From a virus: 64,000 nt of DNA. Positions 3,453 through 37,143 of this stretch are shown one piece after another. Each line of letters starts with the position of its first letter. Position 1 is the first letter of the stretch. A model generated the notes under the pieces. It was not told the origin of the DNA. It was given only the letters and a program-made list of their open reading frames with translations, and did not search any database. The DNA is taken from the IMG/VR virus record IMGVR_UViG_3300023296_001674; one strand, 5' to 3'. Made by a program: the position numbers and the translations under genes.

Positions 3453-4502
3453 ATGAGAGCATGGGAATTATATGAAAATCAAATAATAAATGAATTAAAT
3501 GTTGAATATCGCGGTGATACAGTCAATGATGAATCTTTTGATATTATTGTTCATCGTGGTAAAATATGGATGTATGATTCAAGTGATGATAATAATAATG
3601 AAGCACTTAAAAAGAGTATTATTGATAATTTAAAAATAAACATTGAAAGGCCAGAAGATTTAGACATTGAAGATTTGATGGCGCATGTTATGGAAGATCG
3701 ACCTGATATTATACATGGTCAAATTGTTGATGGTGATGATTTGTATTTAAGTAATCATGCCACTATCTCAAAAAGCCCACGTTCATCAAAAGCAATAAAA
3801 GATATAGTAAAACATTTCGATTTAAGCCGTGTTATGAAATCTGATACCACTGGAGAAAAAGAGGATGTTATACATCGCAGTGAAATGCAAGGAAAAGTGC
3901 CTGATATAGCATTTCACGGAACAAGTTCTGATAATATACGAAATATACTCAATAAAGGAATTATGCCTGTTGAACATGGTAATTTTGAAGATATAAAATT
4001 TCCCGATTTGGTTTTTGTTGCAACTGATCGAAATTTTGTTGATTATCATGCAACCAGTCAAGCGAAAGCAAAAGAGGCCACGCCAATTGTATTGAAATTA
4101 AAAATACCAGATAAAAATAAACTTGTATTAGATTTTGATGTAGCAGTGAGAATGTACGGAAGTGAGCATCCTGAATTAATTGATGCGGGTTATGATAATA
4201 TAGATAGTTCAGTATTTAATAACGAAGAAATGGCGAAGCATATACAGGCGGTTAATAAGGGAACAGATTTAAATACCGAGGTTGGTGTTTTTGGATATAA
4301 AGGACGTATTCCAGCAAATCATATATTAGAAATATATATAGCAGCCGATGCTGATTGGACAGTTGCACCAGATAGCGTAGAATGGATGGAAATGGATGAC
4401 AAATCGGAGTTGTGGAAAGCTCTTGATATGATAGATGCAATCGGATATTATGATCAACATGAACAAATCGAATGGGAAGATGATGAGGATGAAAACTTAT
4501 GA
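3453..4502 (+). CDS. MRAWELYE-tagged protein with ADP-ribosyltransferase/Tpt1-like C-terminal domain
   Basis: FHGTS..NI..IL.KGI.P, VFVA, VLKLKIP, GRIP..HI pattern. Confidence 0.6.
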   Translation: MRAWELYENQIINELNVEYRGDTVNDESFDIIVHRGKIWMYDSSDDNNNEALKKSIIDNLKINIERPEDLDIEDLMAHVMEDRPDIIHGQIVDGDDLYLSNHATISKSPRSSKAIKDIVKHFDLSRVMKSDTTGEKEDVIHRSEMQGKVPDIAFHGTSSDNIRNILNKGIMPVEHGNFEDIKFPDLVFVATDRNFVDYHATSQAKAKEATPIVLKLKIPDKNKLVLDFDVAVRMYGSEHPELIDAGYDNIDSSVFNNEEMAKHIQAVNKGTDLNTEVGVFGYKGRIPANHILEIYIAADADWTVAPDSVEWMEMDDKSELWKALDMIDAIGYYDQHEQIEWEDDEDENL

Positions 4503-10122: not shown

Positions 10123-10839
10123 ATGTTATTAATGGCTAATGGGTGTAGCAATACACACGGTATGGATTCATATAACGGCGAGGTGTGCGACGAGAATAGG
10201 AATCTTGCATTTCCTAAGCATATTGCCGATCATTTTGATATGGATTATCTTAATATAGCACATCCATGTGTTAGTAATGAATATATTGCACATACCACTA
10301 TTGATTGGATCGAAAATTGGATTGAAGACGGTGGCACATGTGAAGAATTGTTTATAGTAATTGGTTTGACCGCTAGCGTTAGAAAGACGTTAGTTAGTGA
10401 TGAATATGGAATATATACATGGAATACTGGTGTAAAAAATGGCGGAATTAGTGCATTTACTGCTGAACAATTTGATATTGTAGAAGATTATTTTAAATTG
10501 TGGTTAGAGTGTGATACAAGTTCTGATTATCACAACTCAACAAGTTACCATCACGTTAATTATTTGCATTTATATTTGAAAGAAAAAAATATAAAACATT
10601 TCATGATCAACACTTGTAATATGTTCACTGATTATTTACCAGAAAATAGACAATATATGAAAAAATTAGCTACGTATGTAGAATGTGCATCTTATAACGA
10701 TAGAGGATGTAATATGTATCCATATTACAAAAATTATAAACCCGCCCCTAGAGGACATATAACGGGTGAGACACATGGTTTATTAGGTCAAAAATGCATT
10801 GAATATATTACAAATCATGAATTATTGATTGACAAATAA
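10123..10839 (+). CDS. SGNH-hydrolase-like protein (DUF6071-like)
   Basis: ANGCS.T.G, N.A....SN, GH...TH; paralog at 48472. Confidence 0.6.
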   Translation: MLLMANGCSNTHGMDSYNGEVCDENRNLAFPKHIADHFDMDYLNIAHPCVSNEYIAHTTIDWIENWIEDGGTCEELFIVIGLTASVRKTLVSDEYGIYTWNTGVKNGGISAFTAEQFDIVEDYFKLWLECDTSSDYHNSTSYHHVNYLHLYLKEKNIKHFMINTCNMFTDYLPENRQYMKKLATYVECASYNDRGCNMYPYYKNYKPAPRGHITGETHGLLGQKCIEYITNHELLIDK

Positions 10840-17589: not shown

Positions 17590-18201
17590 ATGACAACAGT
17601 GGCACAATTATTAAGACATGTATTTAAAGAAAAAAATTATGATATAGAAGTCATTGAATGTACCGGCGATGACGTTGATCCTATGAATTTCGAGCCTCTA
17701 TATGGAAAATTGAAATTTAAATGCGGTGAAAAAATGTTAAACGGTATAGGAACTAATGCTGATGATAAAAATCCTCATGATCATGATCGTAATGACGTAG
17801 CGGAGATTGCTGCGGCGTTATTACAAGAAATAGAATATACATTGGTGGATGAATTTTTGAAAGAAAATAAACCAGTAAAGACGCCGCGATTAGCAAAACC
17901 AAACAACGTGATGCAATTGATAGAAGATAGGTTTTATGATCGCGGTTATAGTGATATCAATGTGAATATAGAACGCACCGACGACGATGTTAATATATTG
18001 AAGTTTAGTATAGGCACTTATGTGTTTGATGTGACCGCTAAGAATTTCGCTCTTGATATTATCACACCATATTATAAAGGTCGTGACATCTCCAATAAAA
18101 AAATTTGGAACACAATGGTAGTAGAAGTTGCAGCAGCAGCCGTGGAAGAATTGGAATATGAAATGAGACATAACTTTTTAAACAAAAATAAAAAAGTTTA
18201 A
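17590..18201 (+). CDS. hypothetical protein with internal duplication
   Basis: QL....F....YxDI and E.AAA...E.EY.....FL each occur twice. Confidence 0.7.
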   Translation: MTTVAQLLRHVFKEKNYDIEVIECTGDDVDPMNFEPLYGKLKFKCGEKMLNGIGTNADDKNPHDHDRNDVAEIAAALLQEIEYTLVDEFLKENKPVKTPRLAKPNNVMQLIEDRFYDRGYSDINVNIERTDDDVNILKFSIGTYVFDVTAKNFALDIITPYYKGRDISNKKIWNTMVVEVAAAAVEELEYEMRHNFLNKNKKV

Positions 18202-18439
18202 GTTTTTATTTGACAATCGAATATCATTATGTTATAAATGATAAATACAATTGATGAAGTGATGAACACACTTCGCTAAAACGTTGAAAATCAGCGGTTT
18301 TTTAAAAAAGTTCGATAAAATCGAAAAAAAGAGTTGACAAAAAACCAATTTTAGAGTAGATTTTATAAATAGATATTACAAAACAAAGTCATCACATGGT
18401 GTGATCGGCGGCAATTTATAGGAAGAAGTGAGTTCAAAA

Positions 18440-18562
18440 ATGTATACTTATTTACTATCATTATTACCACAGCCTAGTAGCGCATTGGAGCAATCCAGTG
18501 AACGTCTCTATGCGGCGGAATATGCCCCGAGACAAGCCGGTGATGGAGGTTTAGCAATCTGA
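18440..18562 (+). CDS. 40-aa leader peptide (putative attenuator)
   Basis: MYTYLLSLLPQPSSALEQSSERLYAAEYAPRQAGDGGLAI; covers the antiterminator arm. Confidence 0.5.
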   Translation: MYTYLLSLLPQPSSALEQSSERLYAAEYAPRQAGDGGLAI

Positions 18563-18606
18563 ATATATTGCAAACCACATAAAAATCTAAAAGGATTTTT
18601 TTACCC

Positions 18607-18641
18607 ACCGGCTACCTAAATATAGGTTAGCCGGTTTTTTT
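18607..18641 (+). terminator. intrinsic terminator with competing antiterminator
   Basis: accggcta-ccta-aata-tagg-t-tagccggt followed by T run; 5' arm also complementary to 18535-18542. Confidence 0.8.
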
Positions 18642-18765
18642 GTATCTTTTTTTAGATACGCAACGTTAAAAGGAGTGAAAACGAACTAAAATGTTAAACG
18701 ACGACATGCAATAGGCGGTTGAAGTTTGATGAAGCATCAATCGCCGTAATAAAGAGGATGATGCT

Positions 18766-19029
18766 ATGGTTAGTTATAGAGTGGAAGAATTTTCGGCATA
18801 TCACGGTTTAAGAAAAATTGTTTTTAATAGTGATAAACCAGACGAAGTAAAAAAAGTAGCAGAACGAGTTTTAAATGATAAAATCTTATTTAAACAATTC
18901 GTTCAAAACAAAGTTGATAAAAAAATCGCCATCCAAGAAAAAAAAGTTTTGGAAAATGCAAAAAAAGACTTGACAGGATGGAAAAAGTGGTTTAAAATGA
19001 TTTTGCCCCGTAGTTTAATTATAGGGTAA
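18766..19029 (+). CDS. hypothetical protein
   Basis: GAGGA upstream; ORF. Confidence 0.5.
   Translation: MVSYRVEEFSAYHGLRKIVFNSDKPDEVKKVAERVLNDKILFKQFVQNKVDKKIAIQEKKVLENAKKDLTGWKKWFKMILPRSLIIG
18970..18998 (+). promoter_or_regulatory. sigma70-like promoter
   Basis: TTGACA-17nt-TAAAAT upstream of ncRNA/tRNA array. Confidence 0.7.
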
Positions 19030-19256
19030 GATCGAAACAGGAGACCAATCTGTTTAGTGCAAAACGCGGAACGAGGCTGCGGGTAAAGCACTTAAAAAAA
19101 CACCCAAACGGGCGCGTCGTGGATGGATTTCCTTTTGTGGAATGAAAAAAACGAAGGTAGGAAGCAATGCGACCTACTAGGGAAAGCGACATATGCTTTC
19201 CTGATTGTCAATAGTTTTGTAGTGGGGTGATTTCGGTTGCCCCACTATAAAACAAC
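19030..19256 (+). ncRNA. structured RNA of unknown family
   Basis: Series of hairpins: gtagg/cctac, ggaaagc/gctttcc, gttttgtagtgggg/ccccactataaaac. Confidence 0.45.
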
Positions 19257-19261
19257 TTTAT

Positions 19262-19332
19262 GGGGCAGCTTGTGGGCTGGACGAAACATTTGCAATGTTT
19301 TAGGCGGGGTTCGATTCCCCGTTGCTCCACCA
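19262..19332 (+). tRNA. tRNA-Ala(UGC), short D arm
   Basis: G3:U70, aaaca-TT TGC AA-tgttt, GTTCGATTC, ACCA. Confidence 0.75.
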
Positions 19333-19340
19333 ATACTAAT

Positions 19341-19509
19341 TAAGTGTCCCTACATGCCGGAATTGGTATACGGGGGTGTGGCTAAGTCAATATGGATAGG
19401 AAAGCAAATACTAATAACTTTCTTTGTGCCCACGGCGTTAACCACCTTACTATGACGAGCACAACCGAACATAGTTATGCAGGATCATACCCTGCTGTGG
19501 AGACACTTA
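19341..19509 (+). ncRNA. tRNA-like RNA with ~100-nt insert replacing anticodon arm
   Basis: D-arm ccggaattggtatacgg, T-like arm gcagg-atcatac-cctgc, closing stem taagtgt/acactta. Confidence 0.55.
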
Positions 19510-19516
19510 ATAATAT

Positions 19517-19596
19517 GGGGGATTAGCTCAGTCTGGGAGAGCGCCTGCCTTGCACGTAGGGTCATTGCATCAGTTCAAATCTGATATTCTCCACCA
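19517..19596 (+). tRNA. tRNA-Ala(UGC)
   Basis: Cloverleaf, G3:U70, CT TGC AC loop, CCA. Confidence 0.9.
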
Positions 19597-19614
19597 ATTT
19601 ATAATAACAACGAT

Positions 19615-19689
19615 GTCCGTCTAGTCCAACTGGCAGGAGACACGAGACTTAAAATCTCGACAGTGTGGGTTCGAATCCCACGGCGGATA
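19615..19689 (+). tRNA. tRNA-Leu(UAA), short variable loop, no encoded CCA
   Basis: cgaga-CT TAA AA-tctcg; GTTCGAATC. Confidence 0.9.
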
Positions 19690-19694
19690 CGAAT

Positions 19695-19772
19695 GCCTGT
19701 GTAGTCCAACTGGAAGGAGACACTAGATTTAGATTCTAGACAGTATCGGTTCGAATCCGATTACAGGTACCA
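19695..19772 (+). tRNA. tRNA-Leu(UAG)
   Basis: ctaga-TT TAG AT-tctag; CCA. Confidence 0.9.
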
Positions 19773-19783
19773 ATTAACTATAT

Positions 19784-19862
19784 GCCCGTTTACGCCAATC
19801 AAGGTAGAGCGATGATATTTAAAATTTCATGGATGTCGGTTCGAATCCGATGACGGGTACCA
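19784..19862 (+). tRNA. tRNA-Leu(UAA)
   Basis: TT TAA AA loop; one stem mismatch; CCA. Confidence 0.8.
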
Positions 19863-19918
19863 ATTAGTGTCCGCAAGGGAATTAAATTACGGGTAGCGTA
19901 AGCTAATTTTACATCAAT

Positions 19919-19996
19919 GTCAGCGTAGTCCAACCGGAAGGAGACACTTGTTTCAAAAGCAAGACAGTGTGGGTTCGAATCCCACCGCTGACACCA
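19919..19996 (+). tRNA. tRNA-Leu(CAA)
   Basis: cttgt-TT CAA AA-gcaag; CCA. Confidence 0.9.
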
Positions 19997-20008
19997 ATAA
20001 TATTTCAT

Positions 20009-20096
20009 GTGGATATGGTGGAATGGTAGACACGCAAGGTTTTGTAATGTTGTGGGAGATATCCCGACGCAGGTTCGATTCCTGTTATCCACACCA
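20009..20096 (+). tRNA. Leu-type tRNA body with irregular anticodon loop (undetermined)
   Basis: Acceptor gtggata/tatccac, long variable arm, A73-CCA, 8-nt loop ttttgtaa. Confidence 0.6.
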
Positions 20097-20100
20097 ATAA

Positions 20101-20247
20101 GAATTGAAGTTCCATCAATAGACTGCCAAGCTGAAAATGCTACGGGTGAGGTGAGTTCTTTATGCGGTTTTCCAGTATCCGCGTCAAACTGGAAAGAAGT
20201 ACGGTGCAGAGCGTGAGAAATCACGCAAGGACGGGTCTCTTCTTTAA
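20101..20247 (+). ncRNA. pseudoknot-containing structured RNA
   Basis: atgcgg/ccgcgt crossed with tttccagt/actggaaa; gcgtga-gaaa-tcacgc. Confidence 0.45.
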
Positions 20248-20263
20248 TAAAAGGTCCGGTTTT

Positions 20264-20351
20264 GGAAGGTAAAGCAGCCAGGGCGCTGCGGGGGGTTGCT
20301 AACCCTTTCGTACTCTAGTAGTGTTCGGTTCGAGTCCGATGCCTTCCTCCA
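20264..20351 (+). tRNA. tRNA-Ser(GCU), extended D stem
   Basis: TT GCT AA loop, long variable arm, CCA. Confidence 0.8.
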
Positions 20352-20353
20352 AT

Positions 20354-20447
20354 GGAAGATTAACCTCGCAGGGTCGGGGGACCGTTTTGAAAGCGGATCG
20401 CACGTGTTAGTAGCATGTGTAGATTTCGAGTATCTAATCTTCCGCCA
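20354..20447 (+). tRNA. tRNA-Ser(UGA), extended D stem
   Basis: ggaagat/atcttcc, TT TGA AA, long variable arm, G73-CCA. Confidence 0.8.
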
Positions 20448-20457
20448 ATTTTAAGAA

Positions 20458-20617
20458 TTAACTGAAGTGCAAAAGCGGACACCAATATTAACGTTTGCGG
20501 TGAATGTGACAGCATAGACTCCGTGGAGGAGTTCCGAAGGGTAAGATAGTGCTAGTTAGATTAATTACCTAACTTACACATTCAAGTGTTGGTGGTAATG
20601 TCCAGCCGGTTATACCA
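20458..20617 (+). ncRNA. structured RNA ending in ACCA
   Basis: taactg/cggtta closing stem, ggacaccaatatt/agtgttggt..gtcc, 3' tatACCA. Confidence 0.4.
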
Positions 20618-20622
20618 AATAT

Positions 20623-20696
20623 TGCGGGTTGCTACAGGTGTGGCACCATGGCGTTGAACCATGGGATGGTGGGATCGTTACCTACACCCGCAGCCA
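20623..20696 (+). tRNA. tRNA-Gln(UUG), atypical (G33, altered T loop)
   Basis: tgcgggt/acccgca G CCA; catgg-CG TTG AA-ccatg. Confidence 0.65.
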
Positions 20697-20703
20697 ATTT
20701 TAA

Positions 20704-20777
20704 CGGAGTATAGTAGAGTGGCACTACCCCTGACTCGGACTCAGGTAACGGGGATTCGATTTCTCCTACTCCGACCA
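20704..20777 (+). tRNA. tRNA-Pro(CGG)
   Basis: cctga-CT CGG AC-tcagg; C1:G72 A73 CCA. Confidence 0.85.
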
Positions 20778-20784
20778 ATAATAT

Positions 20785-20859
20785 AGCGGGTTCGTCTAAT
20801 GGCTAAGACGGGTGTTTTTGGTACACCAAATCAGGGTTCGACTCCTTGACCTGCTGCCA
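20785..20859 (+). tRNA. tRNA-Gln(UUG)
   Basis: ggtgt-TT TTG GT-acacc; G73 CCA. Confidence 0.88.
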
Positions 20860-22851: not shown

Positions 22852-22934
22852 GGGGAAGGAAAGCCAGTGGCTCTGGCACCGAGTCTGTAAAACTCGTCTT
22901 CACGGGAGTGGATCGAAACCACACTTCCCCACCA
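22852..22934 (+). tRNA. tRNA-Tyr(GUA), atypical D/T arms
   Basis: cgagt-CT GTA AA-actcg; T loop ATCGAAA; ACCA. Confidence 0.8.
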
Positions 22935-22950
22935 ATTTTCATACAATAAT

Positions 22951-23033
22951 GGGAGAGGAAAGTCAGTGGCTCTGACATCGCGTCTGTAAAACGCGTCCTA
23001 ACGGGAGTGGATCGAAACCACACTCTCCCACCA
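22951..23033 (+). tRNA. tRNA-Tyr(GUA), second copy
   Basis: cgcgt-CT GTA AA-acgcg; compensatory changes relative to first copy. Confidence 0.8.
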
Positions 23034-27373: not shown

Positions 27374-27512
27374 ATTTTTATGTTGCATTGCGAAGGTATG
27401 CGTTTTATGCAACCCTCTAATGCGTTAAAAACATTGGATTTTATGGTCTAAGTATGATAAATATATATGATGTTGCATTGCAGCATTTTATAACATACAA
27501 GGAGACTTAAAA

Positions 27513-28146: not shown

Positions 28147-28182
28147 ATATTGGAAGAAAAAGAAAAACATTGAATAATTTAT

Positions 28183-28267
28183 CGCGGGGACAAGCACCGG
28201 GCGCTGATGAGGCTCATAACCTTATGTCTTACGACAAAGTTGGTTCGATTCCAACCCACCGCAACCA
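28183..28267 (+). tRNA. tRNA-Met(CAU) with C1:A72 mismatch and long variable arm
   Basis: tgagg-CT CAT AA-cctta; tgtc-ttac-gaca arm; ACCA. Confidence 0.7.
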
Positions 28268-34120: not shown

Positions 34121-34192
34121 ATGGCTGTAGCGTAGAGTTTAGTTACTTCGTATTAGGAACGACTGGGACAGGTTCGAATCCTGTGCATCGCA
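34121..34192 (+). pseudogene. degenerate tRNA
   Basis: acagg-TTCGAAT-cctgt T arm, tcgt/acga stem; acceptor broken. Confidence 0.4.
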
Positions 34193-37056: not shown

Positions 37057-37143
37057 GGAGGGTAAAATGAGCAGGGACTCGTTGCCGCATGGAACGCGGT
37101 TGGTACCATAGAGTATTCGTTTCGATTCCAATTCTTTCCGCCA
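37057..37143 (+). tRNA. tRNA-Ser(GGA), degenerate T arm
   Basis: ccgc-AT GGA AC-gcgg; long D stem; GCCA. Confidence 0.55.

Follow-up and report, generated by a model that had tools for sequence, protein, structure and literature searches.

A candidate leader-peptide attenuator whose codons mirror the tRNA array that follows it in an AT-rich virus record

The control of a phage transfer RNA (tRNA) array was analyzed in the IMG/VR virus record IMGVR_UViG_3300023296_001674, in which a short leader open reading frame (ORF) and an intrinsic terminator precede the tRNA genes. The window, to which positions refer unless another record is named, is a stretch of 64,000 nucleotides (nt) forming the final 64 kb of the 194,073-bp record, whose completeness is estimated at 51%. 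All tRNA genes of the record lie inside the window, 3' of the leader element. Why phages carry tRNA arrays, and how these are controlled, is debated; the proposed roles include codon compensation, escape from host defences that cleave tRNA, and a response to tRNA decay late in infection. The leader ORF is very probably tied to the tRNA array, and the link is well supported by statistics and by analogy with other phages. On balance, the segment from 18334 to 18642 is best read as a divergent, multivalent leader-peptide attenuator that would add read-through transcription into the first tRNA block. As modelled, the switch is plausible but atypical, and its reach would be limited.

The leader ORF (protein P0004; 18440-18562, + strand) consists of 40 codons followed by TGA, as an earlier note on this DNA had read it, and its sequence indicates that it is likely translated. 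The codon usage was gene-like, with log-odds of 0.18 per codon in a model that excluded stop codons, compared with 0.31 +/- 0.18 for windows of real genes and -0.29 +/- 0.23 for spurious ORFs, only 2.1% of which scored as high or higher. The GC content at codon positions 1, 2, and 3 was 0.55, 0.50, and 0.33, respectively, and the leader region as a whole had 46% GC in an AT-rich record of about 35% GC. A relative of the peptide, the 39-amino-acid (aa) protein P0005, is encoded on contigs of up to 247,918 bp; its start, frame, and stop are retained, and its length differs by one codon. Over a core of 30 residues the two peptides share 26 (87%), while the neighboring 87-aa protein and its one relative are 68% identical. 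A GGAGG sequence (18545-18549) was located 10 nt ahead of the stop codon and 7 nt ahead of the last sense codon. Read-through of the TGA codon was dropped from consideration because the extension would run into the terminator.

The composition of the leader was compared with the tRNA set. The default calls of ARAGORN gave an array for seven amino acids (Ala, Leu, Ser, Pro, Gln, Glu, and Met), and a relaxed threshold, which also returned doubtful calls within genes and on the minus strand, added two Tyr, Ser-UGA, Ser-GGA, and others to give an eight-amino-acid set. The seven-amino-acid set accounts for 28 of the 40 leader residues, a value reached by only 3 of 1,240 small ORFs, and the eight-amino-acid set for 32 of 40, which none of the 1,240 reached; the frequencies of these sets in the proteome are 0.36 and 0.40, respectively. 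The level of 32/40 was found in 1 of 2,103 control windows, itself a Pro-Glu repeat, and the enrichment persisted against control windows matched for GC content.

The correspondence extends to the codons. Exact cognate codons for 14 of the 17 array anticodons occur in the leader (controls, 7.0 +/- 1.9), and with standard wobble included the leader codons cover 16 of the 17 (controls, 9.0 +/- 2.0). No non-overlapping control window reached 14 exact cognates, and both coverage values were equalled by only one other region in the six frames of the 194-kb record. The putative regulatory run comprises 17 consecutive codons (codons 5-21; 18452-18502, + strand), all for Leu, Ser, Pro, Gln, Ala, or Glu; it ties for the longest such run in the six frames of the record, its sole equal being a Pro-Glu simple repeat. 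The leader codons are GC-rich for a genome of this composition (CTC, CCG, GCG, GAG, CAG, TTG, and TCC), and the array contains an isoacceptor for each of them. The earlier note had described the leader as mixed-codon, a description that has to be given up, as the leader mirrors the amino acids and anticodons of the array far beyond chance (32/40 and 16/17).

The changes in P0005 follow the same pattern. The N-terminal third of P0005 differs in sequence from that of the leader, and within the first 33 codons seven of the eight substitutions stay inside the eight-amino-acid set (p ~0.009, by our own arithmetic with a set frequency of 0.40). Substitutions that keep the composition are what a leader of regulatory codons predicts, and a conserved functional peptide does not predict them.

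The RNA from 18370 to 18645 was strongly structured (z = -5.97). Between the leader ORF and the tRNA genes lies a strong intrinsic terminator (18607-18642, + strand), with a 12-bp stem containing one bulge (18607-18618 paired with 18623-18635), an AATA loop, a run of seven T residues, and an energy of about -18 kcal/mol; a terminator had been proposed at 18607-18641, and the one found has its stem at 18607-18635 and its T run extending to 18642. The sequence CACCGGCT (18606-18613) at the terminator 5' arm is exactly complementary over 8 nt to AGCCGGTG (18535-18542) inside the ORF, as had been proposed, and the two intervening hairpins said to bring these arms together were recovered as well: in the minimum-energy fold of a transcript ending at 18614, the arms pair and enclose hairpins at 18548-18576, which holds the stop codon, and at 18581-18600 (both + strand). 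This 8-nt pairing is real, just marginally past chance, because the longest upstream complement among the 17 other perfect-stem terminators of the record is 7 nt, whereas when the dinucleotides of the upstream RNA were shuffled the full pairing arose in 8 of 150 cases and its energy gain of -4.5 kcal/mol was equalled in 52 of the 150.

The antiterminator arm at 18535-18542 is a copy of the terminator 3' arm, and it is also engaged in a second, competing helix, here called P1. The 5' strand of P1 (R1; 18389-18413, + strand), a candidate anti-antiterminator, lies in the 5' untranslated region (5' UTR), and its 3' strand (R2; 18523-18546, + strand) contains the arm in the last third of the ORF; together they form a long, interrupted helix of -27 kcal/mol. 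The partner of the arm within the 5' UTR is 18389-18400 (pairing probability ~1), and R1 pairs with 18536-18545 at probabilities of 0.8-1.0. R1 can also fold on itself (18392-18396 with 18400-18404). Two hairpins are enclosed by P1, the first (18421-18459, + strand) with an AGGAAG Shine-Dalgarno-like box and the AUG in its loop, and the second, H3 (18462-18522, + strand), a long in-ORF hairpin capped by a GCAA tetraloop, which is the most conserved part in P0005. The AGDGG codons, which carry the arm and the 3' strand of P1, are identical in P0005. The predicted folds would thus offer three pairings that exclude one another, the arrangement of an attenuator except that the first strand lies outside the ORF. 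The earlier note had taken this to be the layout of ribosome-mediated attenuation, which overstated the likeness: the strand that sequesters the arm comes from the 5' UTR, and the stop codon comes 18 nt past the arm. Rfam searches of 18370-18650, at gathering thresholds and at E values up to 10, gave no family, and ARAGORN found nothing in 18370-18650.

The same leader design was confirmed to recur in Caulobacter and Brevundimonas phages of the Dolichocephalovirinae. In Caulobacter phage CcrColossus (NC_019406.1, region 57500-70000, here L008), a 31-codon ORF at L008:10649-10744, in which 12 of the 13 residues from 5 to 17 are Val, Ile, Gln, Asn, or Arg, precedes a 14-bp terminator, after which come tRNA genes for Val, Ile, Ile, Val, Gln, Gln, Asn, Arg, and Arg. 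A second CcrColossus leader, at L008:3765-3884, matches its own block of Pro, Lys, Leu, His, Ala, and Ser tRNAs. The leader at L008:10649-10744 is kept in Papperlapapp, Gurke, RB23, phiCbK, and Bajun with 68-93% nucleotide identity (five aligned), and Phe or Tyr, inconsistently, appears in some of those leaders whose block has that tRNA. Their consensus fold contains a conserved terminator, an inner hairpin in which the in-ORF copy of the terminator arm pairs with the regulatory codons, and an outer helix between codons 3-5 and the G-D-G (GAUGG) codons; seven pairs with double changes were found in the consensus fold of the Caulobacter and Brevundimonas leaders. No published account of such control of tRNA genes was found. 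In all, small ORFs lie just 5' of three tRNA blocks of CcrColossus (L008:2458-2523, 3765-3884, and 10649-10744), and two of them clearly mirror their blocks. All three begin with Met-(Met)-Thr-Tyr/Phe and none is annotated as a leader; the homologue in Papperlapapp is labelled 'hypothetical protein'.

The present leader and those of the Dolichocephalovirinae share several features. In both, the composition mirrors the following tRNA block, a copy of the terminator 3' arm lies in the ORF on the 3' side of the regulatory run, an outer helix with GAUGG-type codons as its 3' strand closes the regulatory codons, the peptide ends in GDGG plus three residues and the stop with a GGAGG 10 nt before the stop codon, and a strong terminator lies 30-45 nt past the stop. 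The wiring differs. In the Dolichocephalovirinae, it is the regulatory codons that sequester the arm, and codons 3-5, not the 5' UTR, form the 5' strand of the outer helix; the terminator is 130-230 nt from the first tRNA gene with no annotated gene between, whereas 620 nt and an 87-aa gene intervene in the present phage. Lineage and host differ, and no homology extends past an 11-nt motif. When the region, the leader peptide, and the neighboring protein were compared with 50,697 phage records by blastn and tblastn, no match was found; only GGYGAUGGAGGY and the GDGG register are shared with the Dolichocephalovirinae.

The chief competing explanation is a stand-alone micro-protein gene, in which the 40-aa peptide is functional, the RNA structure stabilizes the mRNA or controls its translation, the terminator ends the unit, constitutive leakage feeds the 87-aa gene, and the match to the tRNAs is coincidental. 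The gene-like codon usage, the excess of core identity over that of the neighboring protein, the energetically ordinary antiterminator, and the fact that both the unit, with its strong terminator, and the tRNA block have promoters of their own are consistent with such a gene. We nevertheless consider it unlikely. The composition and the anticodon coverage are each at the level of one in 1,000 or rarer against a tRNA set that was defined independently, the variable N-terminal part changes its sequence and keeps its composition, and the peptide contains no Lys or Asn, each of which makes up about 6.5% of the proteome. In addition, searches of the peptide against Pfam and the ESM Atlas gave nothing beyond chance and no family, a search against 1.84 billion representatives returned only the self-match, and the leaders of the Dolichocephalovirinae provide a parallel.

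In the attenuator that we favor, an RNA carrying no ribosome, or one with a ribosome at the stop codon, would form P1, and the terminator would fire to leave a short RNA. The stop codon is within the loop to be closed by the antiterminator, and a ribosome there would favor P1 and the terminator. A ribosome lingering on codons 5-21 or 25-27, which are inside the P1 loop, would melt H3 so that P1 closes less readily; the freed arm would then pair with the terminator 5' arm, and the polymerase would read through the 87-aa gene into the first tRNA block. The outcome would be tRNA synthesis topped up over the level set by a promoter at 18970. A ribosome parked in either loop would melt the hairpins there and should hinder the closing of that loop. 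Folding of the full-length RNA gave -82.4 kcal/mol for the terminator fold and -74.4 kcal/mol for the antiterminated fold. When a ribosome footprint was masked with the P site on codons 6-17 or 25-27, the advantage of the terminator fell from 8.0 to 1.1-5.7 kcal/mol, and with the ribosome at the stop codon it was 9.8 kcal/mol, which agrees in direction with stalling leading to antitermination. We infer that stalling would promote read-through.

The effect on the tRNA genes would be one of degree. The earlier note had proposed that the leader boosts tRNA transcription, and the part of this that stands is the open path: no + strand terminator was found in 18650-20790, which would let read-through transcripts run on into the first tRNA block. 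The boost itself would be at most additive. Since the array has its own promoters, read-through would add to the synthesis of the first block and modulate it, and would not gate it.

Several features weigh against the attenuator reading. The AGGA of the leader is 16 nt from the AUG, compared with a genome mode of 8, which makes for a weak ribosome-binding site, and this site is held in the hairpin at 18421-18459. The 5' strand of P1 is 27 nt ahead of the AUG, outside the ORF, and a stalled ribosome cannot mask it directly because it lies upstream of the start codon. The sole partner of the arm within the ORF is a weak pairing of 7-8 bp, with G-U pairs, at codons 8-10. The stop codon follows the arm and does not precede it, the energy gain of the antiterminator is not special, and on the full-length RNA the terminator fold stayed more stable at every modelled ribosome position. 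The unbroken run of set residues in P0005 is only 11 residues long, and no comparable leader was found ahead of the later tRNA sub-clusters in the window. Between the terminator and the first tRNA gene lie the 620 nt that include the 87-aa gene, and the near-consensus promoter at 18970 can drive the first block independently. At least eight further + strand promoters were detected in the array (21520, 22403, 23940, 26101, 27852, 28277, 32751, and 37385).

The same elements could be wired with the opposite sign, in which case a ribosome translating through R2 would unzip P1, R1 would fold on itself, and the arm would pair with the terminator behind the ribosome, so that good decoding leads to read-through as a licence or timer. 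Some details of the fold are in keeping with this arrangement, as P1 would form about 60 nt ahead of the synthesis of the terminator arm and is left uncovered by a stalled ribosome; when a ribosome sits at the stop codon, the arm is 3 nt behind its footprint, and the hairpin of R1 itself appears in the antiterminated fold. Still, it would amount to positive feedback on tRNA supply, which has no obvious use, the modelled advantage of the terminator peaks with a ribosome at the stop codon, and in the CcrColossus family the regulatory codons sequester the arm, which corresponds to the classical sign. We regard this opposite sign as improbable. The notion of a non-coding or dual-function small RNA gene, whose structured RNA of about 270 nt acts in trans with an incidental ORF, is the least probable of all, as the z score, the GNRA-capped hairpin, the local GC excess, the early promoter with a late-type motif, the strong terminator, and the precedent of attenuator RNAs that can act in trans, such as rnTrpL (PMC6614838), are set against the lack of any Rfam family even at E values up to 10, the lack of a leader paralogue in the 194-kb record, and an ORF that is kept in P0005, is coding-like in codon usage, and tracks the tRNA set in composition; its pure form was set aside after the codon-usage, relative, and anticodon-coverage results.

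With the attenuators of amino-acid operons, the present element has in common a promoter-proximal short ORF rich in the gauged codons, an intrinsic terminator, a predicted alternative pairing of the terminator 5' arm, and a third segment that sequesters the partner of that arm. Multivalent leader-peptide attenuators are familiar from the enterobacterial thr and ilvGMEDA operons, and others precede trp, his, leu, pheA, and, with the pheM leader, pheST. The differences concern each part of the device. The products here would be tRNAs and an 87-aa protein instead of biosynthetic enzymes or a synthetase, the leader samples 16 anticodons across 8 amino acids where the classical leaders have runs limited to between one and three amino acids, and the sequestering strand is in the 5' UTR instead of under the stalled ribosome; unlike the amino-acid-operon attenuators, the element also has its stop codon 3' of the antiterminator arm and a strong promoter between the terminator and the targets. 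The mechanism of leader-peptide attenuation has been reviewed (PMC1183508). In Sinorhizobium meliloti, rnTrpL is a stable, structured leader RNA that ends at the attenuator terminator, and its peptide, peTrpL, is conserved (PMC6614838, PMC7298713); the present RNA resembles it in being a structured leader that ends at a putative attenuator terminator and in having a conserved leader peptide. A T-box riboswitch is likewise a terminator/antiterminator leader that reports the state of tRNA, but it senses tRNA directly, whereas the present element would do so via a translated ORF and gave no match to the T-box model of Rfam.

One broader proposal, which we hold to be evenly poised, is that unrelated giant phages, among them the present one and the Caulobacter and Brevundimonas siphoviruses, gauge decoding by means of a multivalent 'test peptide' that samples nearly all anticodons of their own array and gates transcription of that array. 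Such a tRNA-pool sensor would be attenuation in the style of trp, and the present element would give it a new geometry, in which the ribosome occupies one of two competing loops and no strand is masked. If true, a phage would measure decoding directly and make tRNAs on demand, ideas on the purpose of tRNA arrays would become testable with simple reporters, and leader-peptide attenuation would extend from amino-acid and synthetase genes to tRNA genes. The present case would carry the design into an AT-rich giant phage with different wiring.

Among cultured phages, only distant relatives were found for the proteins of the record, and IMG/VR labels the 194-kb record as 'provirus'. The proteins of the leader locus are also present on a separate contig of 570,750 bp, and the full phage genome may be far larger than the 194-kb record. 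No related loci were found in viral contigs by means of three flanking proteins or an alignment. A back-translated pattern run once against metagenomes yielded just five matches, all at chance level, and viral and genome contigs contained no match to degenerate patterns for either conserved peptide.

Between the terminator and the tRNA genes, the first gene reached by read-through is the 87-aa gene (P0002; 18766-19029, + strand), which has a good ribosome-binding site and no recognizable promoter. A promoter of its own in 18643-18765 was considered and rejected: a lone TAAAAT has a poor -35 element, and it reads CAAAAT in the relative. The spacer ahead of this gene contains a hairpin (18714-18745, + strand) whose conservation is inferred from the upstream read-through translation of the relative, the gene call of which (P0003) runs 31 codons upstream. 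In the relative, an A-to-G change turns one pair of this hairpin into a G-U pair and another change falls in the loop, so that the implied changes preserve the fold; the spacer around it appears better conserved than the 87-aa protein. The separate sigma70 promoter that had been suggested at 18970 was indeed found (18970-18998, + strand; TTGACA, 17 nt, TAAAAT, 11/12). It is conserved, lies within the most conserved stretch of the 87-aa gene, and is the independent promoter of the first tRNA block.

The first tRNA block (19262-20859, + strand) comprises Ala, Ala, four Leu, a Leu-like RNA, Ser, Pro, and Gln, together with Ser-UGA and Gln from the relaxed threshold. The candidates from the relaxed threshold were Ser-UGA, Gln-UUG, two Tyr-GUA, a third Met, Leu-UAG, and Ser-GGA, and the positions concerned are 20354-20447, 20623-20696, 22853-23033, 28182-28262, 34126-34191, and 37061-37143. 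A family of promoters of the form TTGACA, 16-17 nt, TAtaaT, which includes those at 18334 and 18970, splits the tRNA region into many short units. In the stretch 19000-19332, the promoter at 18970 drives a structured leader of about 260 nt (z = -4.95), the end of which is a perfect 18-bp hairpin (19213-19252), and directly 3' of it lies a 71-nt tRNA-Ala-like gene with G3-U70 and an encoded CCA. The T-arm and acceptor end of this gene match the ends of transfer-messenger RNA (tmRNA) in Rfam with 28.4 bits, below the threshold. A tmRNA or permuted tmRNA, suggested by partial matches at 19224-19379, was rejected, as the matches are part of the tRNA-Ala-like gene, with the tmRNA-like one falling in 19224-19332, and no extension of the permuted model was seen. 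Farther into the array, a 23-codon ORF with four Met codons (27380-27451) lies 440 nt 5' of a Met-Met-Glu tRNA block; it does not have an attenuator layout, since an ORF of 87 aa, a terminator (27828), and a promoter (27852) intervene.

Ahead of the leader, both of the stacked sigma70-type promoters that had been proposed are present. The leader promoter (18334-18362, + strand) consists of TTGACA at 18334-18339, a 17-nt spacer, and TAGATT at 18357-18362, with an A-tract ahead of it as at 18970; it starts at 18334 and not at 18333, where it had been placed. The upstream promoter (18210-18239, + strand), read from the sequence, has TTGACA at 18210-18215, a 17-nt spacer, and TATAAA(T), with TATAAA at 18233-18238; it was missed by the promoter scan, the final base of its -10 hexamer being A. 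With regard to late motifs, the one given at 18364 is an exact T4-late-type TATAAATA (18364-18371, + strand) that overlaps the early promoter at 18334, but the one given at 18240 matches at only 7 of 8 positions, as TATAAATG (18233-18240) or GATAAATA (18240-18247). The motif TATAAATA by itself is not significant, because its 26 occurrences on the + strand match the number, about 26, that base composition predicts. Downstream of the 18210 promoter, a 6-bp hairpin that holds GUGAUGA is followed by a weak terminator (18246-18302). This weak terminator-like hairpin with six T residues (18282-18302, + strand) may close a unit of about 55 nt transcribed from that promoter. The GUGAUGA is complementary to UCAUCAC of the R1 strand, and through this complementarity transcripts started at 18210 could alter the folding of the leader.

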